From the NCBI RefSeq assembly GCF_003334255.1, contig NZ_QOWU01000048.1: a DNA stretch of 43,440 nucleotides. One strand, 5' to 3'. This DNA is from Escherichia coli. GTDB lineage: Bacteria > Pseudomonadota > Gammaproteobacteria > Enterobacterales > Enterobacteriaceae. Shown piece by piece: positions 2,984-40,509 of the stretch (position 1 is its first letter; the number at the start of each line of letters is the position of its first letter). A model generated the notes under the pieces. The model ran no database searches. It worked only from the letters and a program-made list of their open reading frames with translations, and was not told the origin of the DNA. The position numbers and the translations under genes are program-made.

Positions 2984-3599
2984 TGCATCGCCTGTAAATT
3001 TTTAACTTGTCCTATTTTTGTCATTACCACGTATATACACATGTATAACAATTCAGATATCGTTACCAGGATATGCCGCATCAGCGGCATGGAAGGCGGC
3101 ACTCTGTTGTTTCATATGATACAGGAGTAAAACCGCCGAAGCCCGGCGTAAGCCGGTACTGATTGATAGATTTCACCTTACCCATCCCCAGCCCTGCCAG
3201 ACCATACCCGCTTTCAGCCATGAGAGAGCTTCTGTGCGCGGTCGGAGTGGTCCCGACGAGGGTTTACCCGAAGTCGGGGCGTATCTCCGCGTTAGCGGGC
3301 CGTGAGGGCCGCTTACGAGCGTGTACTGAGAACTTCCAGCGAGAAGACTGACAGCGATGAAGATGTAGTTACAACATTCATAATTAAAAGCGACTCTGTT
3401 CCGGCCCTTTGGGCCGGGGCGGGGCCGCTTTTCAGTTATGAGGGAGGGGCTTTGTGGTTTCGGTTCTGCGCTGGACCGGGGTTTTTCTGGAGGTTGTTTT
3501 TGTGTGTTGTAACTAAAGTGGCTCCGGTCGGGGCCCGCCGCTTGCGGTGGGAGGTGCATATCTGTCTGTCCACAGGACAGGCAGTGAATAGGTTTTCTT

Positions 3600-4846: not shown

Positions 4847-4869
4847 ATAACTATACTCCCCGCATAGCT

Positions 4870-4956
4870 GAATTGTTGGCTATACGGTTTAAGTGGGCCC
4901 CGGTAATCTTTTCGTACTCGCCAAAGTTGAAGAAGATTATCGGGGTTTTTGCTTTT
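4870..4956 (+). ncRNA. copA: CopA antisense RNA (copy-number control), approximate bounds
   Basis: Lies on the strand opposite the repA leader, between copB and tap. Imperfect long hairpin (CCCCGGTAATCTT...AAGATTATCGGGG) followed by TTTTTGCTTTT at about 4898-4956, as expected for the CopA terminator stem-loop. 5' end not determined. Confidence 0.5.
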
Positions 4957-6915: not shown

Positions 6916-6993
6916 GTTATTCTCCATATCAGATAAATAGCACCTGTATTTCATGCATCCTGAATATTGCAGCACACACTGAATAACACCTTA

Positions 6994-7015: not shown

Positions 7016-7472
7016 TATAAAATCACGACTTAATACGGAAAAAACTCTGTGCTACTCAGAACTGTCCGGTCATACTTCCCGACCGGATATTAAAAAAAGC
7101 AAATCTCATGCATTATTCAGCCTTCTGAATCCCTGGAGTAATGAAGGCTGCTTTTTCGTTACACCCTTCCCCGGCAGCGCCGGTGGCAGTGTTCAGCCCT
7201 TTTTCGGGCAAACTGCTGCCAGTCTGTCCGGGGAGCAGACTGCGCAGCCCGTAGCCATGCCTCAGCGGCTCCCGGCCAGTCCCCCCTGACTTCCAGCCGG
7301 ACAGCCCGGCGTCCGACCTGCCGGTAGCGCCATACCCCGGAGTTTTGCGAATCACGCCCTGTTCCGTTCATTTTCCTTCCCCCTTTAATCCAGGCCGGTG
7401 AATGTGTTATAAATTTTTATAACCTTCTTCTGCCGGGTATGGAAGAAGGTTTCAGAGAAGCCTTATTTTTCC

Positions 7473-9847: not shown

Positions 9848-12800
9848 TCAGTCTCCGCCCAGGGTTTTCTCTTTCTGCAGGTCACGAACCATATCCCGCT
9901 CCATCTGCTGCAGACGCTCCTGCAGCAGATTTTCCCGGGCAACCTCCCGGACCGCTTCCCGCTCCCGTTGTGATTCACGCAGCACACTCTCCGGCAGTGC
10001 GGTTTCCCGTTCAGATATGGCAGACCGGTCACGCTCCTGTCCGGCAATATCCCTGACAGCCAGCTCTGTTTTGCCGTCCGGCAGGTCAGGTTTGTTCTCT
10101 GCCATTTTCCTGACAATTTCATCTGCGCGGCGTTCCGTTTCACGGCGGATGGCCTCTTCAGCCTGCCGCTGTGCCAGTACCTCTGCCGTGACCGGTTCGC
10201 CATTTCCGGCACCCGGCTGGACGCTGTTGTCCGGGATATCCCCCCACACGCGGCCACCGGTGATGGCACCGGGATTCCACGGGCGACCTTCACCGGCGAT
10301 TCTTACCACCACACCACTGTCAGGATTATCACGGGCAATCCGGACGCCATCCTGCATATTATCAGCCAGCAGGCTCTCTCCGTTACGGCTGCCCTGCAGG
10401 GCCACGAACTGCGCATCCCCGCTGCCTTTCACCCGTCCTTCACCACTGAATCCCCGCAGCCCGTTTCCGTCATCCGTGGTCAGTGGGTTCAGCCAGATAC
10501 CAGCTGACTTGCCGTTACGGTCAAACGCCGGCAGTGCCACATGCGGCTGCGGATATTTACGTCCCGGTGCAATAAACCGTGCAGGGCTGTCTCCCCCGGC
10601 CAGCCCTGCCTGACGGAGAACGGCACGGCCTGCCGCCACGTCCCGCAGTTCCCGTGCCGTACTGAACAGCCGCTGCGCATTCATGACCTCCCGGTCCGGT
10701 TTCGGCTCCAGCACATCGTGGGCAGTTCCTTTCTGTACGGCATTGTTAATGGCATCCGTCCAGCCCTGACGGTTATCGGTGTACACCTGCACATGCTGCT
10801 TCATACGCGACAGGGCCACGTAGGCTGACTCAAAGCCGGCCATCAGTTTCCGGTTACCTTCCGTGCCTTCAAGCGCGATGGCAAAGGTTTCACTCGCCCC
10901 CTGCGCACCGTGGGCGGTGATGGCATAAGCCAGGTCAATATGTTGCTCTGCCCGCTCCTGGCCGGGGCGAATCACCCGGGTCTGCTGTCCGTCTGACAGC
11001 GTGACACTGTCACCGGAAACCGCTGTCACCGTCCAGACGCTGTTGGCCACATAACCGCGCTCCCGGTCACTCTTCGTGAAGCGCATCCGGTCGCCGGTCC
11101 CCACCCGGATTTTGTCCGGGGTGTACAGTGTGACACCTTCAGCCACCGCCTCCCGGGGCGAAATCAGCCGCGTGTTACCTTCCGCATCCTCCAGGGTTAT
11201 CAGCCCGTCATCCTTGCTGATACCGGCAATCCGGTGATACACACTATCCACCAGGGCAAGGGCATCCGGGTTATTCTCCCAGGTGGAGAGACGACGCAGC
11301 TCCCCGTCACGTATATTCGCTGTGTTCAGGACAGGCACCATGACCTGCTCTTTCCCCAGCTCACCGGCCTTTTCCCGTGCATCATGAATCATGCTGTTCA
11401 GTACGCGCCGGTCCTCATTCAGGTGCGTGACAATCAGCGTCTGCTCCCGTGCTTCCGGTGTCCTGCCGGTATAGTCGCGGACAATGGCTTCATACAGTGT
11501 CATGGGGACATCCGGAAAAGTCTCACCTTTCAGCATCGCCTTCTGCTGCGCTTCTGCCAGTTTCGCTTCCTGGCTGTGACTGAACTCCGTCACGGAGTGC
11601 TCCGGTGCCCATGCGCCCTCCTGACGGGGAACCTGAGACGGTTTCACACTCTCAAGCCCGGACAGTGCCCTTTCCACATCCCGGTTAATCAGGCTGTATA
11701 CCGCCTCCCGCAGTTCCGGCGTCTGACGCACAATCTCCTTCATGATGACCACATCGGCAGCACTGCGCGTCTGCTGGAGACGGAAAGGCTGACCGGGCGC
11801 GATGGCCTGCAGCTGGTCCGTGTCACCACTGGCCACGGCACGACCGCCACCGGCCGCAATCAGGGCGTATGCCCGTGCCATGTCGGTATTGCCCACCATT
11901 GAGCTCTCATCGAGCAGGAACAGCGTGTTGCTGAAATCCGGCGTTTCTCCGCTGCGCTGCTGCAGCTGCGTGTCATGCAGAAAGGACGCCAGCGTCTGTG
12001 CATCCACGCCGGCGCTGCGCATCTCACCGACCGCACGGTGCGTGGGCCCCAGCCCCACAACTCGGGGACGCTCACTCGCCGGCAGCATGTTCACGGCTGA
12101 CATCACCGCCCGGAACTGTGTGGTCTTACCCACCCCGGCATACCCCTGCACCACCGTGAAACGGTCGGACGTTTCCAGTATCATGCGGGTGGCGGCACGC
12201 TGTCCTGATGTCAGTTTCTCCATGAGTTCGCCAGGTACTCTCTCCATCAGCGGCGTGACCGCCTCCTTACCTTCGAGAATATGGCGAAGAATACTTTTTT
12301 CTGCCTCATACGACGCACGGGAAACCAGCAGGCCTGTGCCATAGCCTTTTGCCACATCCACATACAGTAAGTCACCGCGTTTTATCTGCGCATTGATTTC
12401 CCCTCCCAGTTCAGTAAAACCGGTTCCTTCTGCAGCAAACGACTTCGCCTCTGTCAGCAGGTCCACCATGCTGAAGGCCAGGTTTTTACTTTCCAGCACA
12501 GGAAGGGCCAGATGAATGGCCTGCTGTGCCGGCGTGTGCAGCCCGGTTTTCTGCAGACTGATAGCGGTTTCCAGCGATGTCTCACCGGCCCGCGCCTTTA
12601 TCTGCTCAGAAACCACCGTAAAGGAGGGATGGCGGGCAAGTTTTTCCGCAGTACGGGTTTCATCCAGTGAGGAATACAGCCGGACATCACGACCGCTGCG
12701 GGCCAGACCGTTCAGGGTGGCGTTGTCCATTGCCATCTGTGTGACGGAGGCAAACACCGTCGCACTGTCACTGACGGAATGCCCGGGCGTTTCCACCCAG

Positions 12801-18331: not shown

Positions 18332-18841
18332 TTAACTAACAGACTCTTTTTTGAACAGTCCTATTACTGAGGCTATAGCTGAGAGATTATAACGATTTAT
18401 ATCTATGGTATACACCAAGAAAAATAATATGAATGTAATCATTAGTGCAAAAACATATAAGATAGAATGCATAAACGAAACCATAGAAAAAACAATCAAA
18501 AACAACAAAATATATGTCTTACTCTTAGAATACATAAAATTTATTATTTTTGAATCCTTTCTGAAACTATCAGGAATCGCAAGGTATAACATCATTCCAT
18601 TTGTAATAGCCACAAAAAGCAGGAACCCCATCATTCCACTAGCACATATATCAAAGCCAACATCCCTGACATCACTTTTAACCGATACTAAACGCAGAAA
18701 AGTTGGCCATAATAAAACCCATAAAAACACATAAGTTCCCGGCTTTATGACTTGTAATAATGATGGGATATTAACACCCTCTACAGAGAGTACCTCCTTT
18801 AGTTTTTGCATCTCCATTTTTATATCATAGTGAGTGATCAT
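18332..18841 (-). CDS. traS: TraS-like inner-membrane entry-exclusion protein, 169 aa
   Basis: Syntenic position between traG and traT. Very hydrophobic and AT-rich, as is typical of the hypervariable traS. Called from synteny and composition, not from sequence identity. Confidence 0.6.
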
Positions 18842-21663
18842 AATGGCCCCTTCAATCGTTCTTTCTTATCATCCACCATCTGTTTTAACGCATCTTCAGA
18901 CGGTGTTGGCATTAATTTCTGTCGTTTATTTTCTTCATTATATCTGTTGTTTTGTTGAATTTCTTCCTGTTTGTGATTATTTTTTAACTCTGAATATTGT
19001 CTGTCTACAATATTTTCTTCGCCATGAATACTATTCTGAGTATCTCCGATATTCCCTTTATATTCTGTGACCATATTATCAACCTGATGTTTTACATCAT
19101 TACGGATATTACTGTCCTGCGTTCTTTGATCAATAATGGCCTGATGCCCCTGATGGTCAGCAATAATATCCTGGCTGCCACCACCCGAAGGTACGCTCTC
19201 CATTCCTTTACCAATATCCCCACGGGATTCACGCCAGGCATTATCAACACCAGGCTGCACCTGTTCCTGAACAAAAGACCATGCCATCGCCCGACGGCGT
19301 TCTGCAATCTCCGGTGAACTGGTGTTTGTCAGAATAGCTTCGGCATCCTGCGGTGCGTGTTTCATCACATACTGTGCAAACTGTTGCGACAAATCTTCGC
19401 TCATCTGCCCACTCATGCTTTCAGTACGGGATGCCATTTCAGCATATTCATGGCTGCGGGTCATATTCGTCGTGTACTGGTCGTAACTCTGTTTCGCTGA
19501 GTTCAGGGCTGCAGACAACTGGTCCACGCGGGAATCGGCATTATTGTCAGTATGGCTGCCGGATTCACTGACTTTGCGACTGGTAAAGTAATCGCTGGCC
19601 TCTTTAAAGTCCTTACTGGCTTTAGCATCGATATCATGGCGAGCATCATGGGTAGCCCTGCTGCCACTACTTGCTGAATGTGAGTCATCATCCGTTGCAT
19701 CCAGGCTCCCCTTAAATCCACCTCTGATGCCTACCCCACCACCAACACCAAGAATTTTAGGTTTAACCCCCCATTCAGCATGAGCATCAGCATACATTCC
19801 ACCAGATAGCCTGGTACTTGTTGATGCCAGTTCCTGAGTCGCCTGCTCATTACTGATATTATGCGCCTTCGCATAGCTTTCCACTGCACTGCGCATACGG
19901 CTGGCCATCATGGAGTCCTGAGCACTCATCGTGCTGTCAGCACCACCGGTGACAGAATCACTGCTCCCCCGGTTAGAACCAAACTGACTGAGCGTGTTCC
20001 AGGCACTGGCAATACTGCTGCTGAACCCATGCAGGGCACTTTCTGCTCTGTTCGATGCTTCCCGGGCCATTTCCTGTTGTGCCGCCGCAATCTGACGCGT
20101 TGCATTGATACCGACCGGTAAACGGGACATCGCCCCGCTCGCATCCATCACCATATTACCGTCACGGGTCTGTGTGGCGGTTGCGCCACTGCCGGTCTGG
20201 TACATCATCTGACCAAACGACGTGGTGCTGTTGGTGCTCCAGCTGAAGCCGTTAACGTTCTCCGTCTGCATGTTGCCGTAGGAGTAATTACCGTCAACCA
20301 CACTGCCTGCTGCACTGGCGGTCGGGCTGATAGCAGAGGAAGCGAAATGGCTGTACACACTGGAAAATCCTGCCCCGAGCCCCCTGACCATCATCCAGGA
20401 TAATGGCGGGATCATCATGGAAAGATACCCGGCAGTGGAAGCCAGATCGGAGTATTTCAGCTGTATCTGTGAAATTTCCGAGAGCACCACCGGTGCACCA
20501 TTCTGCTTTGCATAAAATGTCATGGCGCTGTTCAGAATGGCGTACAACATTGGCCATGACTGCAACCACATCAGGGCAAACACATAGCCTTTCAGGACGG
20601 ACAGCGTCAGTTTGTTGAAGACAGCCGCCAGTACCAGGAGCGGGAAAATACCGATGGCGATCCCCGTCAGGATGGTCTGCGTCATGGGCAGTGTCCGCAT
20701 CGCCACATGACCGATGGAGACATGTGCCAGACGTTGCTTCTCCATCGATGATGTGGTGGCCAGATTCACCAGGCTGGCCGAATCACCATTACGTGCGGCA
20801 TAACTGGTGATCCCCTCCTTCAGCGCATTGATGGTGACATTCTGGCGGATGATCTGGCTGGCTGATTTACTTGAGCCATAGAAGTAACTGTAACTGTCGC
20901 CAATCAGCGTACTGAACAACAGGTTCGGATCAGGGCGTCCACCAAATAGCTGCTGGGCATAATAATGCCATGTTTTTCCGCCACTCTGTGTGTCCAGATT
21001 CAGCTTGTCTTTCAGCGAAACCGACGCGTCCTTACAGGTCACGAAATTATTATTGCTGTCATAAACGCCCCGCAGCGGACTGGGGCGGGAAAAAATCAGC
21101 GTGTAAGGATCAGCGGAGGCCATCAGTTCCTCCAGCGTGTATTTGTGGTTCAGGTAAATATCCCCCATCACGCAGTTCTGCACATAATCCTGGAAAAGAT
21201 TGGCGATTTCCGGATTACGGGACAAAAAGTCGGTGCTTTTTGATACCAGTTCTGCGCCAAACAGCATCCCCGTTTTGCTGTAGGTGACACTGTCCGGTTG
21301 CGTGAAGATCATCTCGTAACTGGCCACCATTGCATGCCCGATACGGGTCGTCAGTGAAAGTGGCATCGCCAGTCCGACCGGCACATTATCCACCCGGTGA
21401 ACTTTGACCAGGTCACTGTTATCAATAATCTGCACCGATGTGCGGACATTAACCAGCAGGCTGATAAGCACAAACACGGCCACCCAGCCCAGCAAATCCA
21501 TCACGTTGTGCCGCTGTACCCACATTACGGCCACCGCGAGAACAGACAATGTGAGCGCAATTTTTTCAATGGAATCCCACGTCCGGGTCCCCATAAAAGC
21601 GGCAATGGCATTCAGGTTATTCCGCAACCACTCACCACCGGCAATCACATAAACTTCATTCAC
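18838..21663 (-). CDS. traG: TraG mating-pair stabilisation/pilus assembly/entry exclusion protein, 941 aa
   Basis: Size, N-terminal polytopic region and large periplasmic C-terminal domain match F TraG (938 aa). Syntenic with traH and traS. Confidence 0.9.
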   Translation of the reverse strand: MNEVYVIAGGEWLRNNLNAIAAFMGTRTWDSIEKIALTLSVLAVAVMWVQRHNVMDLLGWVAVFVLISLLVNVRTSVQIIDNSDLVKVHRVDNVPVGLAMPLSLTTRIGHAMVASYEMIFTQPDSVTYSKTGMLFGAELVSKSTDFLSRNPEIANLFQDYVQNCVMGDIYLNHKYTLEELMASADPYTLIFSRPSPLRGVYDSNNNFVTCKDASVSLKDKLNLDTQSGGKTWHYYAQQLFGGRPDPNLLFSTLIGDSYSYFYGSSKSASQIIRQNVTINALKEGITSYAARNGDSASLVNLATTSSMEKQRLAHVSIGHVAMRTLPMTQTILTGIAIGIFPLLVLAAVFNKLTLSVLKGYVFALMWLQSWPMLYAILNSAMTFYAKQNGAPVVLSEISQIQLKYSDLASTAGYLSMMIPPLSWMMVRGLGAGFSSVYSHFASSAISPTASAAGSVVDGNYSYGNMQTENVNGFSWSTNSTTSFGQMMYQTGSGATATQTRDGNMVMDASGAMSRLPVGINATRQIAAAQQEMAREASNRAESALHGFSSSIASAWNTLSQFGSNRGSSDSVTGGADSTMSAQDSMMASRMRSAVESYAKAHNISNEQATQELASTSTRLSGGMYADAHAEWGVKPKILGVGGGVGIRGGFKGSLDATDDDSHSASSGSRATHDARHDIDAKASKDFKEASDYFTSRKVSESGSHTDNNADSRVDQLSAALNSAKQSYDQYTTNMTRSHEYAEMASRTESMSGQMSEDLSQQFAQYVMKHAPQDAEAILTNTSSPEIAERRRAMAWSFVQEQVQPGVDNAWRESRGDIGKGMESVPSGGGSQDIIADHQGHQAIIDQRTQDSNIRNDVKHQVDNMVTEYKGNIGDTQNSIHGEENIVDRQYSELKNNHKQEEIQQNNRYNEENKRQKLMPTPSEDALKQMVDDKKERLKGPL

Positions 21664-23036
21664 AGCGTGCTCCCTCCGAAGTGATAGTTGTTCTGGTAAC
21701 GACTGAGCATGCGGGCGGAAAGCTGCTGACGCATGTAGCTCATCTGACGATCGACAACCAGCAGCGCATCCTGCTGTACCTGCACCTGTGACTGAAACGC
21801 CGCAATCTGCCGGGTGGCATCATTCATGTTGTCGTTAATATGTTCGATAACTGCTTCGTCATAATTTCCTGTGGCCACCATCGCCCGGGCCTGCTGTATC
21901 AGCTCCTGAATGTACTGCAGCAGGATGTCGTAACCGATATAGTCCGTCAGCTGGTAAATCATACTGTTGGAAACACCGAGCATCTGCGGGTCAACCAGGT
22001 ATTTGAAGACGGGGATGGTGGTACTGGAAATAAAGCCTTTTTCCTTGTCATCCAGAGGCGTGTCACTGACAGCCTTGTTCTGAATGCTGGCCAGAAGTTT
22101 AGTAATCTGAGACTTCAGTGCATTATCCCGGCTGATGGTCACCGGTGTGTCTGCCACCACTTTCAGGCATTTATCAGAATCGTTGCAGTGATAAATTTTT
22201 GCTGTGCCGCCTTCCATCATGGCCCGGATAATTGAGCGGTCAGTGGTTCTGGCTGACAGCGGTGTGATTTCGCCGTTGGGACCAAACACCAGTGAGCCGG
22301 TCAGCGTCATCACAAACTCTTTCAGCTCTTTGTTGCCGTCAAACATTCTGTTTTTGGAAAGCGCATTCCACATGATGTTAATGTTTTTGGTCACCCGCTC
22401 CTTATCCTTGTCGCTGGCTTTATCCCTGACGCTGTCAGATTTACCGCCAACGGTACATCCCTGCCGGGAAGCCGCCCAGTCAGCAAAAATATTGCTCTCA
22501 CCGGCAATGTCCTGACAGACTTTTTGCTGGGACACCTGCGTCCGGGGGAAAAGCCCGCCGATAATCCCCTGCGCCGCCTGGCAGGAACTGAGGTTCATGC
22601 TGTTAATGTCGCTTGCCATTTTCTGCAGGAAGTCTTTTGCGGTTTTGATTTCCGGCACCGTTGTCTGCAGGGCAAGGTCAAAAAAGTAACCGGCAGCATT
22701 ACTCATAATCTGCTTAACAAAACGCTGCAGCTGCTCGCCATTAATAAAACTGAACGAACCGAGATAAGCGTCGATGCCGCCACATCCGGCATTGATATCC
22801 GGCAGCGTCATGGAAATCAGCTGAACATTTTTGACCTGAGTACGGGCATACAGGGAGCCGCCGTAAGCATAGCCGGCAGCCTGCCCCTGCCAGACGCCCG
22901 GCTGTGTGGTATTGGAGGCGAAGCCCAGCTTGTTAAAGAACTGATTCATGTCGCTGTTCACATCCGCTGACGCTGCGGGTGTGACCGTCAGTAAAGCAGC
23001 ACAAAGAACCAGAAGAGGTTTAATGCGTAGCATCAT
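21660..23036 (-). CDS. traH: TraH pilus assembly protein, 458 aa
   Basis: Signal peptide (MMLRIKPLLVLCAALLTVTPAASA), size and C-terminal coiled-coil match F TraH. Confidence 0.9.
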   Translation of the reverse strand: MMLRIKPLLVLCAALLTVTPAASADVNSDMNQFFNKLGFASNTTQPGVWQGQAAGYAYGGSLYARTQVKNVQLISMTLPDINAGCGGIDAYLGSFSFINGEQLQRFVKQIMSNAAGYFFDLALQTTVPEIKTAKDFLQKMASDINSMNLSSCQAAQGIIGGLFPRTQVSQQKVCQDIAGESNIFADWAASRQGCTVGGKSDSVRDKASDKDKERVTKNINIMWNALSKNRMFDGNKELKEFVMTLTGSLVFGPNGEITPLSARTTDRSIIRAMMEGGTAKIYHCNDSDKCLKVVADTPVTISRDNALKSQITKLLASIQNKAVSDTPLDDKEKGFISSTTIPVFKYLVDPQMLGVSNSMIYQLTDYIGYDILLQYIQELIQQARAMVATGNYDEAVIEHINDNMNDATRQIAAFQSQVQVQQDALLVVDRQMSYMRQQLSARMLSRYQNNYHFGGSTL

Positions 23037-23335
23037 TCTTGCCCTCCCTTAATTTGTTCTCCCGGCGCATACGACATTTCAGCAGGAATATCCCGATATT
23101 TCCGTCCAGTCCTGCGGCTGTAATATATTTCAGACACCGAAATCCATCCCACAATTGCCCCCACAAAAAACACAACAGAAACAGAAAAGGTAAGGCACAG
23201 CGAAACGACAATTTCTACAGGGCTGGCGGGATAAAAAAGCCCCTGACGGATAAAGGGGATATTCAGGCTGACGATTATTCCCGTCGCGATGCCGGATATT
23301 CCGGCAATGAGTAACACCACCTGCTTATTTCGCAC
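23033..23335 (-). CDS. trbJ: TrbJ-like small membrane protein, about 100 aa, start uncertain
   Basis: The only ORF between trbB and traH. Candidate GTG start at 23335, just after the trbB stop. There is not enough space for both trbJ and trbF, so trbF appears absent. Confidence 0.5.
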   Translation of the reverse strand: MRNKQVVLLIAGISGIATGIIVSLNIPFIRQGLFYPASPVEIVVSLCLTFSVSVVFFVGAIVGWISVSEIYYSRRTGRKYRDIPAEMSYAPGEQIKGGQE

Positions 23336-23870
23336 CTTTTTTTCCTCCGTACATCTGCAGAACGGTATCCATCCGCGCCATAAAACCGGCGGCATCCGTT
23401 GCCCCCTGTAAAAGCGGTAATGCCTCAAGCGTGTTGACGTTGACCAGGAAGGTGGTCGGTGTGGCCACCGGGATATTCGGGAAGAAGGTCTGCATCACGT
23501 CCGGTGGCACCGGTAATGCTTCCGGAAAGGCGGTATCCCCCTGACCATCCAGGGTGTAGGGAAAAACGGAAAAGCCGTACTGCTGTGCCAACTGCTTCAG
23601 TACCGGGTCAAACTGGTGACAGTAAGGGCAATGCCCCTGCATAAACAGCACCACCTTCCAGTCGGCCAGGTTAACCTGCCTGCCGTTGCTGAGGCGGAAC
23701 CAGCGGGGAGCCGGCTTTTCTGTCCTGGCTGATGTGTCTGCTGCCGGTTGTGCAGGCTGCGCGGCCATGCCCTGCGGATTCCAGAGTCGTTCAATTTCAT
23801 CCCGGGTGGAGGCCTGCACGGCAGCGGCTGCCAGCAACAGGGTGAACAACAGTGATTTAATGAGAGACAT
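23325..23870 (-). CDS. trbB: TrbB periplasmic thioredoxin-fold disulfide isomerase, 181 aa
   Basis: Signal peptide plus CxxC active site 'GHCPYCHQ'. Size matches F TrbB. Confidence 0.85.
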   Translation of the reverse strand: MSLIKSLLFTLLLAAAAVQASTRDEIERLWNPQGMAAQPAQPAADTSARTEKPAPRWFRLSNGRQVNLADWKVVLFMQGHCPYCHQFDPVLKQLAQQYGFSVFPYTLDGQGDTAFPEALPVPPDVMQTFFPNIPVATPTTFLVNVNTLEALPLLQGATDAAGFMARMDTVLQMYGGKKGAK

Positions 23871-24141
23871 GTCTGCCCTCCTGCTGCCCTTCCATCATGG
23901 CCTGTTGCCTGGCTTCCAGTGCCTCACGCTCTTCCCGGCTGACACGGGCAATCCATGCATCCAGCACCTGGTATGCGCCGAATAGCACAAGGATGGCCGC
24001 AATCAACTCCGCCAGAAAAAAAGCCATCCAGGGTTTGCTGTAAACAAGACGGGCGACGATATGAAACCAGACACCCAGGGAAAATACCCACATTCCCGTA
24101 ATATCAAGCCGGGGTAAAGAGAATCTGCGTTTACTTATCAT
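23857..24141 (-). CDS. traQ: TraQ pilin chaperone, 94 aa
   Basis: Size, position and hydrophobic central segment match F TraQ. Confidence 0.8.
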   Translation of the reverse strand: MISKRRFSLPRLDITGMWVFSLGVWFHIVARLVYSKPWMAFFLAELIAAILVLFGAYQVLDAWIARVSREEREALEARQQAMMEGQQEGRHVSH

Positions 24142-24259
24142 GTTAAACTCCGGTTATTATTTACATGAGAGTATTTATGTCTGTAATATTCGCGTTTGTG
24201 TGATATTAATCAGATCAACCTCATTATTTTGTATGGTTTTTATTACCGTTTTATATGAC

Positions 24260-24607
24260 TTAGCCTGTCATAAGCCCCCTTATAAAAAACCACATCACTC
24301 CGGACCATACTGATGACAACATAATACAGATAAATATTCTTCTGAACCCGTCGAAGCTCGTAACGTTCGGTAATGAGCCAATAACCATTGGAACAACCAT
24401 TGCTGCGCCCTGATTCATAATTGCACCACACAGAAACCAGAGACTGGCAGTCAGCACATATAAACACGCGATATTAATAACAAGGAAAACCAGTGAGCTC
24501 AGGAGAAACATTTTCCTGTCATTACGCTCAGAAAAGAAATAACCAGCAATAATGACAAATATTAACAGAACAACACCTGTAAACAGTTTCAAATAATCTT
24601 CACTCAT
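24260..24607 (-). CDS. trbA: TrbA small inner-membrane protein, 115 aa
   Basis: Syntenic between traF and traQ. Polytopic, AT-rich, same length as F TrbA. Confidence 0.7.
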   Translation of the reverse strand: MSEDYLKLFTGVVLLIFVIIAGYFFSERNDRKMFLLSSLVFLVINIACLYVLTASLWFLCGAIMNQGAAMVVPMVIGSLPNVTSFDGFRRIFICIMLSSVWSGVMWFFIRGLMTG

Positions 24608-24622
24608 AAATCAAATCCGCGA

Positions 24623-25366
24623 TTAAAAATTGGGTTTAAAATCTTCAGAAACGTTCAGGAACTGTTTTGCCAGGTCGTCCTGCGAAATAAAACCGTATGA
24701 TAACGGGCGAACACTGCCCTGTTTCGGGTCAACCAGCATCATGGCCGGGAAATATTTCACGCCGAGGCGCTGCGCCTGCCCCTGGTCAGTCCGGGAATCC
24801 GGCAACAGCGGATTAATCACGCCATCCACGGAAACGGGAATAACACTCAGACCATAGGTATCCCTGAAGCCATTAATGACCTGCGCCAGCTGCCCGTCGA
24901 TGGGGTCCTGCCCCCGGTAAAAGAACATGATGCCGTAGTGTTCAGCCAGTTTCGCAATGGCCTGTCGCTGCTGCACCTGGTCTGCCGCCAGCTGGTTCCG
25001 GACCGTGCCGTTGTAATGGCTGTACTGCAGGTTATAGTCCAGTTCGGGATGCGCCAGCATGGCTTTTTTGGCGCTCATGGTGAAAAGCCCGGCCTGCTGA
25101 GTCCAGTAATTTTGCAGCCGGAAATATTTCACAAAATTATCCACGCCGGGATACAGAATGGCTTCGTACAGCGCCCGCTTTGTTGCCGTCTGCAGTGCGG
25201 CCAGTTTCTGCATAATGTCCGGCTCCTGACGGGGGGCTGCAGGTACTGGTTTATTTTCTTTTTCCTTCGGATTTATTTTCTCGTTATACCACTGCCAGCC
25301 TGCATCTTTTCCTGACGCCGGAAAAATAAAGCAGCAGAGTAACAGTGGCAGTAATGCTTTATTCAT
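24623..25366 (-). CDS. traF: TraF periplasmic thioredoxin-like pilus assembly protein, 247 aa
   Basis: Start trimmed to MNKALLPLLLCCFIFPASG (signal peptide), giving the F TraF length. ORF-track start at 25396 is an over-extension. Confidence 0.85.
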   Translation of the reverse strand: MNKALLPLLLCCFIFPASGKDAGWQWYNEKINPKEKENKPVPAAPRQEPDIMQKLAALQTATKRALYEAILYPGVDNFVKYFRLQNYWTQQAGLFTMSAKKAMLAHPELDYNLQYSHYNGTVRNQLAADQVQQRQAIAKLAEHYGIMFFYRGQDPIDGQLAQVINGFRDTYGLSVIPVSVDGVINPLLPDSRTDQGQAQRLGVKYFPAMMLVDPKQGSVRPLSYGFISQDDLAKQFLNVSEDFKPNF

Positions 25367-25619
25367 CTTCATTCCTTTCATCACTTTTTCTTTCATCAGG
25401 TTTCTGCAGGTCAGTCAGGGCAGAAAAACAAAAATACAGAATAAACAGGAGCACACCGGAGTAAAAAATAACGAAAGCAGCAGCAAGTATCTCACCTGCA
25501 GTGGTTTCTTTTACCGTATCCCACGACCAGATAATTACCGGGGAAATGACAATCGCTGTAATCAAAAGCCGGATAAGAAAATCAATAAAACGGTTCGACG
25601 TGAATATGACTTTCATCAT
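25359..25619 (-). CDS. trbE: TrbE small membrane protein, 86 aa
   Basis: Size and position (between traN and traF, overlapping the traF start) match F TrbE. Confidence 0.7.
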   Translation of the reverse strand: MMKVIFTSNRFIDFLIRLLITAIVISPVIIWSWDTVKETTAGEILAAAFVIFYSGVLLFILYFCFSALTDLQKPDERKSDERNEDE

Positions 25620-28113: not shown

Positions 28114-28566
28114 TTAATTACCCGTAGGGTTTTCTCTCAATTTTTCTGCCAGTTTTAAAAAAGCATCAAACTCTTTCTGACCTGCGCATATTTTACTGGC
28201 TGTAATCGACACGGTTATTCCTGATGTGTTATTGGCAGAGTCTTTAATATCATTATTATGGACGGAGACATTATCGGGACTGAAAATATAAACTTTTTCT
28301 CTGGGATAATCCCTGTCCACATCCTCCCGCCACTGAATCTGTTCTTTATCAAAACGGTGATACATTATTGAGGAAAACCGGCACAACCAGTCGTCAATAC
28401 ATGACAGCTTATCCAGTAATTGTTGCGAATGACGGACCTCACAGGCAAGCTGCCGACACTCCATAATGCACCGTGACACACCACCATTTGCATTCACAAG
28501 CGCTTTCATCTCCAGCAGAACACCCATATCAAGTATTCTGGAGCCATATTTTATATTATTACTCAT
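28114..28566 (-). CDS. Hypothetical protein, 150 aa (distal gene of the AT-rich insertion in the tra operon)
   Basis: ATG at 28566 preceded by a GGAGG RBS at 5-nt spacing. About 38% GC against about 55-60% in flanking traU/trbC. No motif recognised. Several Cys (CIMECRQLAC, SCIDDWLC). Confidence 0.55.
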   Translation of the reverse strand: MSNNIKYGSRILDMGVLLEMKALVNANGGVSRCIMECRQLACEVRHSQQLLDKLSCIDDWLCRFSSIMYHRFDKEQIQWREDVDRDYPREKVYIFSPDNVSVHNNDIKDSANNTSGITVSITASKICAGQKEFDAFLKLAEKLRENPTGN

Positions 28567-28595: not shown

Positions 28596-29057
28596 TTACC
28601 TGGCATAAATATTATCTGTATTACGATGCCTTGATGGCGTATAAACATTGCAACTCCTTTCTCTGTCAGAATTGAAGGACAATGCAATAACACCATCAAA
28701 CAACAGTTCGATAAACTCAGACTCACATGAGTCTGCAACCACAACCAGGCGTTTATGATATTTTCTGGCCTGTTTAATTAACCTGATAACTTTTGATGTC
28801 ATTTTCTTTTCACACAGCCTGACTCCATCAAGGATTAACGTCTTTTCAGGTGTATTCAGAAAATCAAAATTATCAATATTTTCATCACAAAGCCGGTTGT
28901 ACCCCGCAGAGTTAAGAGTTTTAAAGTTGTAATACCGGGAATCACTATCACTGATTCTTATTTCAGTCAGGAGAGTTGACTTGCCGGTATCTTCTTCCCC
29001 CTTAATCAGAATGCGGTCTTTAAAGTTCAGCATTAATTCTGTTGCCTGTTTATACAT
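28596..29057 (-). CDS. Small P-loop NTPase-like protein, 153 aa (proximal gene of the AT-rich insertion)
   Basis: Walker A-like 'GEEDTGKST' near the N-terminus and candidate Walker B 'TLILDG' / 'RLVVVADSCE'. ATG at 29057 with an AAGGA RBS, 25 nt after the traU stop. ORF-track start at 29096 overlaps traU and is rejected. Confidence 0.55.
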   Translation of the reverse strand: MYKQATELMLNFKDRILIKGEEDTGKSTLLTEIRISDSDSRYYNFKTLNSAGYNRLCDENIDNFDFLNTPEKTLILDGVRLCEKKMTSKVIRLIKQARKYHKRLVVVADSCESEFIELLFDGVIALSFNSDRERSCNVYTPSRHRNTDNIYAR

Positions 29058-29082
29058 AAAAAATCCTTCAGAATTAGTAGTT

Positions 29083-30075
29083 TTACAGGAAGACACAGTT
29101 ACGTTTACGCCACATCAGGTAGCCGAAGTTTTTCTTTGTATTGGGCGGATTTTTCCCGGTTTCCCAGCGGGTCACACTGCGCCCGAACGGATGGCACTGT
29201 CCGCTGTCCGGGTACATATTCACCATCTGGTAACGCCAGCGTTCTTTGGGCAGGATTGGGGACGGATATTCATTACAGACGGCGTTATTTTTCCCGATGG
29301 TTTCCATAATCATGCCCTGACGGTGCAGCTTGAACGCCATGCGTTCACTGACCAGCAGGGAGGACTGCAACGGACTGGACTCATTACTCACCCAGCCATT
29401 GAACGGGTACATACTGCCCTGCGAACCGGCACACCAGAACAGAACATCGAGAGGCATATTAAAGGCGCTGGCAATGGCATCTGCTGCACAGGCCCCCTGT
29501 GCTATCGGATTGGCAAAGATGACAGCTTCCGGATTGAGAATGGTGGTCAGGCTGCTGTCCGTCCAGGTGGGGTCGATTTCAGAAAGATAAGCGATATCCA
29601 GGTCACCACCTTCCAGACAGCCCAGCGATGTGATGATGTTAAGCCAGTACGTCAGCGGGTATTTGTACCAGTGAACGTGATAGAACGCCCCGTTCACCTG
29701 CTTCTCATCCTTTTTCGCCGTTCCCTGTGCCGTTTTACCAAAAGCCGGCAGGCTGAAGCCCAGGTTAACCATGCATCCCGGTGATCGGGTGACGTCCGTC
29801 AGCGCCATCGGCTCCCAGTAACCAATGGCCAGCCCGATACGCCTGAACAGCGGCGGCGGTGCCGGACAAATCTGAATGGGCATCGACGGGTTCGCCGTGT
29901 CGGGGACCTTACCCTGACTGACTTTGATACTGCCCAGCGAGAGCGGGAAAATACAGCTCCAGCAGATATCCGTGATCGGGTTTACAAAACGCCCCTCACA
30001 GGCAGAATCCGCAGACGCTGCAGGGACATGACCGGCGAGAAGGAATAACATCAGCAGCCACAGGCTTCGCTTCAT
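29083..30075 (-). CDS. traU: TraU pilus assembly/DNA transfer protein, 330 aa
   Basis: Signal peptide (MKRSLWLLMLFLLAGHVPAASA), 330 aa, Cys/Trp-rich as in F TraU. Confidence 0.9.
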   Translation of the reverse strand: MKRSLWLLMLFLLAGHVPAASADSACEGRFVNPITDICWSCIFPLSLGSIKVSQGKVPDTANPSMPIQICPAPPPLFRRIGLAIGYWEPMALTDVTRSPGCMVNLGFSLPAFGKTAQGTAKKDEKQVNGAFYHVHWYKYPLTYWLNIITSLGCLEGGDLDIAYLSEIDPTWTDSSLTTILNPEAVIFANPIAQGACAADAIASAFNMPLDVLFWCAGSQGSMYPFNGWVSNESSPLQSSLLVSERMAFKLHRQGMIMETIGKNNAVCNEYPSPILPKERWRYQMVNMYPDSGQCHPFGRSVTRWETGKNPPNTKKNFGYLMWRKRNCVFL

Positions 30076-39632: not shown

Positions 39633-40319
39633 TTACTTAACGCTATAAAATTCACGAATTATATTTAATAGCGAATCTATTTCCCCTTTATAGATACATG
39701 ACACTCTGAATAAATCAAAGTGTTCAAAAAATTCTTTTATTTTCCGTTTAACTGGTTTAATTCGATCCTCAGATGCTCTGTCTGTAATACCCAATTCTCT
39801 GGCAATTGTTGCATGACCAACACCCAGCATATAAAAAGAGAAAACAAGCAATGTCCCGGGGGAAAGATCATTCCATATCGTTAATTTGTCAGAAGTATTT
39901 GTATTACTTCCACTCTGATTTAACGCAAAAAATGGATAATCAGGAAACGGATTAATTTGCCATAAAACAACAGATTCGTCATTATAAAAAGAAACATTCT
40001 CCATCCTTATCTGATAGATTTCGCCATGAAAATTAAAACGACGACAAAATGCAGAGCCATGTCCAAGAGCCTGGCATTCCAGTTCAAGTGATGAAAGAAA
40101 AATTTCAACCTGCAGACGTATATAACTCTCTCCGGATAAGGGTTTATCTTCTCTGGAAAAGAGTTCAATAAAAGCCCCATTGGCATAAAGGATTTTCCGG
40201 TTTTTGTTACGGACACAAACCGGAACGGGAGAATTTCTGTAGATATTCTGAACGTTAAGGATGTATTTATTTACAGATTGACTGTTAAGTGGCCTTTCTC
40301 TACGATCCAGCGCACACAT
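39633..40319 (-). CDS. traJ: TraJ transcriptional activator of the tra operon, about 228 aa
   Basis: Start trimmed to the ATG at 40319 ([14 protein letters not shown]...), which has a GGAGG RBS at 5-nt spacing. C-terminal helix-turn-helix-like segment '[20 protein letters not shown]'. ORF-track start at 40379 runs into the finP/leader region. Confidence 0.8.
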
Positions 40320-40395
40320 AGGAACCTCCGTTAAGGATTCTATGGACAGTCGATGCAGGGAGGTCTGAACTCCCTGCATCGGCGATTTTCAGTTT
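40320..40395 (+). ncRNA. finP: FinP antisense RNA (approximate), complementary to the traJ leader
   Basis: Plus-strand perfect hairpin CGATGCAGGGAG-gtctgaa-CTCCCTGCATCG at about 40350-40381, followed by GCGATTTTC. Overlies the traJ RBS region on the opposite strand. Ends not mapped. Confidence 0.45.
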
Positions 40396-40509
40396 CAATT
40401 TTTAACGTGGCATTAACCACGTAATTAATATACTAATTATCTGACGTATTGTCATCTTTTTGAATCATAAAAATTCTTATATTTGAACCAACTCAAACTT
40501 CATTTTCAT

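Follow-up and report, generated by a model that had tools for sequence, protein, structure and literature searches.

Our analysis revealed that the interval between trbB and traH in the window (the whole 43,440-nt stretch of Escherichia coli contig NZ_QOWU01000048.1, assembly GCF_003334255.1) is filled by a trbJ-trbF chimaera, i.e. by an ORF that is neither a plain TrbJ nor a plain TrbF, and that is not a new gene either. Pairwise and nine-sequence alignments, together with the translations, assign codons 1-77 to F-type TrbJ and codons 78-100 to the C-terminal tail of F-type TrbF. This single fusion gene very probably goes back to an old 346-bp deletion that kept the function of TrbJ and the coupling to traH and lost a dispensable trbF.

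On its minus strand the window has the whole of an F-like tra operon, traM through traX plus finO, which adjoins an IncFII-type repA/CopA replicon. The stop of trbB and the ATG of traH are separated by 288 bp (23037-23324), in good agreement with the first-pass annotation, which had put the distance at about 290 bp with room for one ORF of roughly 100 amino acids. The interval 23033-23335 as a whole is exactly one ORF, and since this ORF overlaps both trbB and traH there is no non-coding DNA in it (Table 1). The gene content of the operon had also been said to differ from F at this point, and it does, with one ORF in the place of the trbJ and trbF of F (NC_002483.1). Elsewhere in the window, matches above the Rfam gathering score were obtained for FinP with the traJ 5' UTR, CopA, antisense-to-traI, antisense-to-traG and AS-pc02 (40313-40422, 4864-4954, 12193-12269, 20859-20944 and 7079-7262, respectively), which is what an F-like plasmid of IncFII type should have. 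The traU–trbC interval contains two ORFs (28114-28566 and 28596-29096, minus strand; about 150 and 166 amino acids) that are annotated as hypothetical in plasmid pH1038-142. The window is not collinear with pH1038-142 near 6928-6943, where about 2.6 kb of that plasmid (L017 36513-39088) are absent.

Table 1. Features in and around the trbB–traH interval (positions in the window).
Feature	Position	Strand	Remarks
traG	18838-21663	minus	
traH	21660-23036	minus	458 aa from first ATG; start overlaps ORF stop within ATGATG
63-aa ORF, another frame	23020-23211	minus	remnant, not gene
Chimaeric trbJ'-'trbF ORF	23033-23335	minus	100 codons + TGA, GTG start
Retained trbF 3' end	23033-23105	minus	last base of codon 103, codons 104-126, stop; 73 bp
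91-aa antisense ORF	23039-23314	plus	
Shine-Dalgarno of traH, AAGGGAGGG	23042-23050	minus	inside retained trbF remnant
Deletion junction	23105/23106	minus	...GACTGG / ACGGAAATATC...; mapped against F
TrbJ-derived part, codons 1-77	23106-23335	minus	alignment to F and six other alleles
trbB	23325-23870	minus	181 aa; last 11 nt overlap chimaeric ORF
Shine-Dalgarno GGAGG of the ORF	23344-23348	minus	8 nt upstream of ORF GTG, inside trbB 3' end
traQ	23857-24141	minus	
trbA	24260-24607	minus	
traF	24623-25396	minus	

Compared with F, 346 bp are missing (NC_002483.1 83637-83982), which removes the last 16 codons of trbJ and codons 1-103 of trbF. Within trbJ the break follows base 2 of codon 77, and within trbF it falls at base 3 of codon 103 (left and right breakpoint, respectively). 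Since the reading frames of trbJ and trbF in F are offset by one, the loss of 346 bp (3n+1) brings the F-type TrbF tail into frame with trbJ, and the retained 3' end of trbF is now read as a new TrbJ tail, RKYRDIPAEMSYAPGEQIKGGQE. The alignment to F TrbJ and TrbF that had been proposed as a check of the ORF product gave a composite answer, TrbJ residues 1-77 followed by the last 23 residues of TrbF. At its C-terminal end the window ORF reads ...EIYYSRRTG-RKYRDIPAEMSYAPGEQIKGGQE before the stop; the corresponding ends are ...EIYYSRMTGLNESSEISEGTYNERK in F TrbJ and ...NIRKYRDIPAEMSYAPGEHIKGGQE in F TrbF. The TrbJ-derived part has two hydrophobic segments on the Kyte-Doolittle scale (residues 4-29 and 37-72, approximately), a feature shared with F TrbJ, and the 23-residue tail derived from TrbF is hydrophilic. 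Nine of the 16 variable ungapped alignment columns in the trbJ-derived part fall on third codon positions. A tryptic peptide predicted for the chimaeric protein is, for example, YRDIPAEMSYAPGEQIK.

No microhomology was found at the junction of the 346-bp deletion. Three bases within 14 nt of the junction differ from F; these substitutions, which adjoin the junction, are unique to the compact forms, and a parental trbF-positive allele with AGGACT at trbJ codons 75-76 was not found among six divergent alleles. In trbF-positive alleles the decamer CGGAAATATC or a close variant of it occurs near the 3' ends of both trbJ and trbF, so that the copies bracket the variable body of trbF (F, L005, approximately 3152-3161 and 3485-3494; the window copy is at 23095-23104). 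The right breakpoint coincides exactly with the second decamer copy, yet the junction is not a simple repeat-mediated product: loss of the DNA from one CGGAAATATC copy to the other would leave ...GAATCATCGGAAATATCGAGAT... and the out-of-frame tail SEISRYSC before the stop, which is not present.

Both ends of the chimaeric ORF are embedded in its neighbours. It starts with a GTG at 23335 and overlaps the 3' end of trbB by 11 nt, and its TGA (23033-23035) overlaps the ATG of traH within ATGATG. The start of trbJ is called differently among records, either at this GTG with its good Shine-Dalgarno sequence or, 60 nt further upstream and within trbB, at an ATG; PGAP takes the ATG at 23395 in the identical pH1038-142 record, which gives 120 amino acids. 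In pEG356 (L008, around 361) the trbJ GTG is GTA, which means that this plasmid must start elsewhere. The Shine-Dalgarno sequence of traH is nearly invariant in eight aligned sequences, the sole change being a C for the first A in L010. RNA folding at the traH start gave a minimum free energy of -23.2 kcal/mol, no better than the -23.1 kcal/mol of shuffled sequences (z = -0.03), and an alignment-based fold paired the traH Shine-Dalgarno sequence with traH codons 6-7 with essentially no covariation; neither result lends support to a role of RNA structure in the coupling.

Family models agree with the TrbJ assignment. Against NCBIfam NF010265, the equivalog model for F TrbJ, the ORF scored 188.1 bits from the GTG start and 240.9 bits from the ATG start used by PGAP. 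With a curated cut-off of 164 bits for this F-plasmid TrbJ model (144 bits for the TrbF model NF010306), the ORF is not a chance ORF. NF010306 itself gave no match to the ORF at E <= 0.01, and in an hmmscan of the ORF against the whole of NCBIfam the sole matches were NF010265 and, below threshold, TIGR00341. Pfam had nothing for the ORF or for a TrbF allele at E <= 0.001, and the chimaeric ORF had no match in PHROGs. The product name attached by NF010265 and PGAP, 'P-type conjugative transfer protein TrbJ', is misleading for a protein of 93-100 amino acids with two hydrophobic segments. The P-type TrbJ is VirB5-like and has about 250 amino acids. An identity with the TrbJ of IncP or Ti-type systems was considered and rejected, as the NCBIfam and Pfam scans gave no similarity to the P-type family; 'P-type' in the product name is a label and does not denote a relationship. 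A more general annotation trap is that the gene is routinely called trbJ and has its tail from trbF. We found no statement in the literature that describes this 'trbJ' as a chimaera of TrbJ with a TrbF tail.

The compact junction is common. Using a 60-nt probe centred on the junction and an E-value limit that excludes half matches, we detected it in 780 PLSDB plasmids, approximately 22% of the 3564 with trbJ, from Escherichia (674), Salmonella (81), Shigella (14) and Klebsiella (8), among other hosts. The junction 60-mer was at least 99% identical in 557 of the 780, and 774 of them are typed as conjugative. The full trbJ-trbF stretch was found in 2766 PLSDB plasmids; the comparison of the junction across F-like plasmids that had been called for yields two widespread forms, compact and full. 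The six compact-junction plasmids that we aligned agree exactly at the junction and have in common the three substitutions next to it. Their trbB and traH alleles vary, and in two of the six the tail downstream is of R100 type (ACGCCG...GGGCAGCAATAATG) and otherwise of F type. This pattern fits a single origin of the deletion, with homologous recombination carrying it to other backbones afterwards. The variant is an ordinary one, already sequenced in many IncF resistance and virulence plasmids.

A second deletion in the window offers a comparison. The gene artA is absent by a clean 278-bp deletion relative to F between traQ and trbA (window 24141-24260, junction around 24214/24215, microhomology of at most 1 nt). 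The 60-mer of this junction occurs in approximately 1550 PLSDB plasmids, including R100 (NC_002134.1). With a combined probe, both deletion junctions were found in approximately 570 plasmids and the trbF-deletion junction only in approximately 210, so the two markers are partly independent of each other, as the mosaic nature of tra regions would lead one to expect. The replicon types of junction-bearing plasmids vary as well (IncFIA, IncFII, IncFIC, and IncN and IncHI2 co-integrates). Mosaicism, as seen in the varied flank and tail alleles, the partial linkage with artA and the varied replicons, therefore limits the value of the junction as a subgroup marker. The suggestion of the first-pass annotation that the junction helps to place the plasmid in an F-like subgroup holds in so far as the compact form defines a real subset (780 versus 2766 plasmids), but not in the sense of a clean lineage marker; judged from these comparisons the junction is usable but imperfect. 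Its practical use lies in a precise 60-nt signature that can serve in the typing of tra regions in F/R100-type resistance plasmids.

As to the direction of change, the compact junction is derived, by deletion, and not ancestral. With a TrbF allele as query, tblastn detected homologues (28-39% identity) immediately flanked by trbB and traH in Klebsiella plasmids of the IncFIIK type and in one from Providencia. Klebsiella pKPHS2 has the gene order traF-traQ-trbB-trbF-traH without trbJ, and the Providencia plasmid with the TrbF homologue has no trbJ either. Because TrbF homologues occupy the trbB–traH interval of plasmids without trbJ, trbF predates trbJ. Relatives of TrbJ(1-77) were confined to the E. 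coli-type F/R100 clade, with 3564 records, almost all at least 90% identical. Deep divergence among trbF alleles contrasts with a compact junction that hardly varies, which again makes the compact form the derived deletion. The reverse order of events, in which a trbJ of 100 amino acids abutted traH from the beginning and trbF was inserted later, in the lineage leading to F, is extremely unlikely. The decamer CGGAAATATC lies in F near the 3' end of trbJ and at the right breakpoint in trbF and thereby has the superficial look of a target duplication, but it is not placed as a simple duplication around the missing segment. The pSLT-like plasmids, which have neither trbJ nor trbF, would suit a late arrival of trbF; the TrbF homologues at the same position in Klebsiella IncFIIK-type and Providencia plasmids without trbJ, and the divergence of trbF alleles set against the nearly invariant junction, speak against it. 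The ancestral reading is largely refuted already.

Two further readings concern what is encoded in the interval today. That a second real gene overlaps the chimaera, either a shortened TrbF encoded by the 63-aa minus-strand ORF or the 91-aa antisense ORF, has next to no probability. The last 23 or so codons of the 63-aa ORF (IFLLKCRMRRENKLREGKNDATH) are the TrbF C-terminus in the frame of five of the six non-F alleles, where trbF ends 14 nt inside traH, and tblastn does recover this tail, as in compact-junction plasmid H240, in which the match covers only TrbF residues 104-130. Agreement with the conserved C-terminus of most TrbF alleles is nevertheless all that this ORF offers: upstream of the junction it is trbJ read out of frame, its sole start is a TTG inside trbJ that is not credible, and it lacks the TrbF core and both TrbF hydrophobic segments. 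In a scan confined to PHROGs neither alternative ORF was matched. A second conserved overlapping ORF, named beforehand as the observation that would speak against a single-ORF junction, was thus not found; the 63-aa ORF is a leftover of the trbF tail frame. The other reading, which is unlikely though less so, holds that the chimaera is a functionless remnant, i.e. that trbJ was inactivated too and its DNA persists only as a leader, translated or untranslated, carrying the traH ribosome-binding site. It draws on the accessory nature of both trbJ and trbF, on pSLT-like plasmids that transfer with trbB directly abutting traH, and on the loss of the native TrbJ tail. Against a mere remnant stand the intact ORF with both hydrophobic segments in all six sampled variants, a trbJ annotation in nearly all junction-bearing PLSDB records among the matches listed, the conservation of TrbJ(1-77) at 90% or more across approximately 3500 plasmids, and a score that is still above the curated TrbJ family cut-off.

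We therefore return to the fusion gene with retained TrbJ function, for which the following course can be proposed. An ancestor would have had the order trbB-trbJ-trbF-traH as in F, and a 346-bp illegitimate deletion would have taken away 16 codons from the end of trbJ and 103 from the beginning of trbF. The product would be a protein of 100 residues with two predicted passes through the inner membrane, made up of the TrbJ body and a hydrophilic TrbF tail, and whatever TrbJ contributes would stay in the fusion. The surviving 73 bp of trbF would supply the ribosome-binding site of traH, and the overlap of the chimaera's TGA with the traH ATG would still deliver ribosomes to the traH start. TraH is essential, and this deletion may have been tolerable where others might reduce TraH. 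In all six compact-junction plasmids the chimaeric ORF is intact and its stop overlaps the traH start, as TGATG or TAATG. From this arrangement we infer that TrbJ function is probably retained and that the 3' end of trbF would preserve traH expression. On the other side, trbJ is reportedly not essential for F transfer, and the chimaeric ORF could therefore be neutral.

TrbF, a fast-evolving accessory membrane protein, appears dispensable for transfer. The plasmid pH1038-142, whose sequence was obtained from transconjugants, is listed as a conjugative plasmid (PMC4285173), but being an IncF-IncN co-integrate it is not a clean test of trbF loss. pAPEC-O2-R, which carries the junction, is an IncF plasmid that transfers in mating assays (PMC7840957). 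pEC_B24 is without trbF and artA according to its published gene content, as distinct from its junction sequence, yet transfers readily (PMC2887853). The transfer of these three plasmids supports an accessory trbF, although none of them is an isogenic comparison, and it is as natural transfer-proficient plasmids without TrbF that such cases matter. The fusion opens no new biology on its own.

The trbF gene shows a history of its own in the F/R100 clade. Its alleles have 46-60% amino-acid identity with dS around 0.5 and dN/dS of 0.4-0.75, and the ORF was intact in all seven alleles examined. This divergence hot spot is flanked by the near-invariant trbJ(1-77) and by the conserved last 72 nt or so before traH, and the pattern resembles that of the allelic specificity genes of the tra operon, namely traS, traT, the C-terminus of traG, and traN. 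It is conceivable, but very unlikely, that TrbF determines specificity or compatibility in the mating apparatus, which would make plasmids with the trbJ-'trbF fusion a functionally distinct class. If so, fusion plasmids might differ in mating-partner range, exclusion or sensitivity to pilus phages; alternatively, the tail-swapped TrbJ might take over part of the role of TrbF. The tail of TrbF varies as well. Because of a run of T7 versus T6 (L005 3460-3556 versus L006-L011), classical F TrbF ends in ...RKYRDIPAEMSYAPGEHIKGGQE at the traH ATG, while five other alleles end in ...IFLLKRRMRRENTLREGSNNASH, 14 nt inside traH; both tail frames are open in all alleles examined. Among PLSDB matches such as H87, H89, H208 and H219, some have full-length trbF DNA and no trbF in the gene table, and some differ in length by 1 nt. 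This may point to trbF pseudogenes in certain lineages, in keeping with dispensability; pseudogenes are left out of the PLSDB table.

Among known systems the window is closest to pH1038-142, with 99.97% identity across the tra region and 100% across the trbB–traH stretch, where PGAP annotates a single trbJ. The compact junction of pH1038-142, pAPEC-O2-R and the approximately 780 PLSDB plasmids is identical to that of the window and nothing material differs; unlike the window, some compact-junction plasmids have an R100-type tail or traH allele downstream of it. From pSLT-like Salmonella plasmids, in which trbB is followed directly by traH, the window is set apart by the trbJ-derived gene in between, and from the IncFIIK Klebsiella plasmid pKPHS2 (trbB-trbF-traH, no trbJ) by keeping trbJ and losing trbF. 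With F TrbJ (93 aa; NF010265 / PRK13711) the window gene shares the position downstream of trbB on the same strand, the GTG start overlapping the end of trbB and the two hydrophobic segments, and residues 1-77 differ at three positions only (V17A, S47C and M75R). The native, acidic 16-residue C-terminal tail of F TrbJ, LNESSEISEGTYNERK, is replaced by 23 TrbF residues, and whereas F trbJ adjoins trbF, the window gene adjoins traH. Of F TrbF (126 aa; NF010306 / PRK13743) the window keeps the 23 codons at the 3' end, with the F-type tail sequence ATGTCG..GGGCAAGAATGATG, and the overlap of the stop with the traH start, whereas codons 1-103 have been lost, and with them the two hydrophobic segments and the core IDSWKADPELNN..YMWN, which is conserved.
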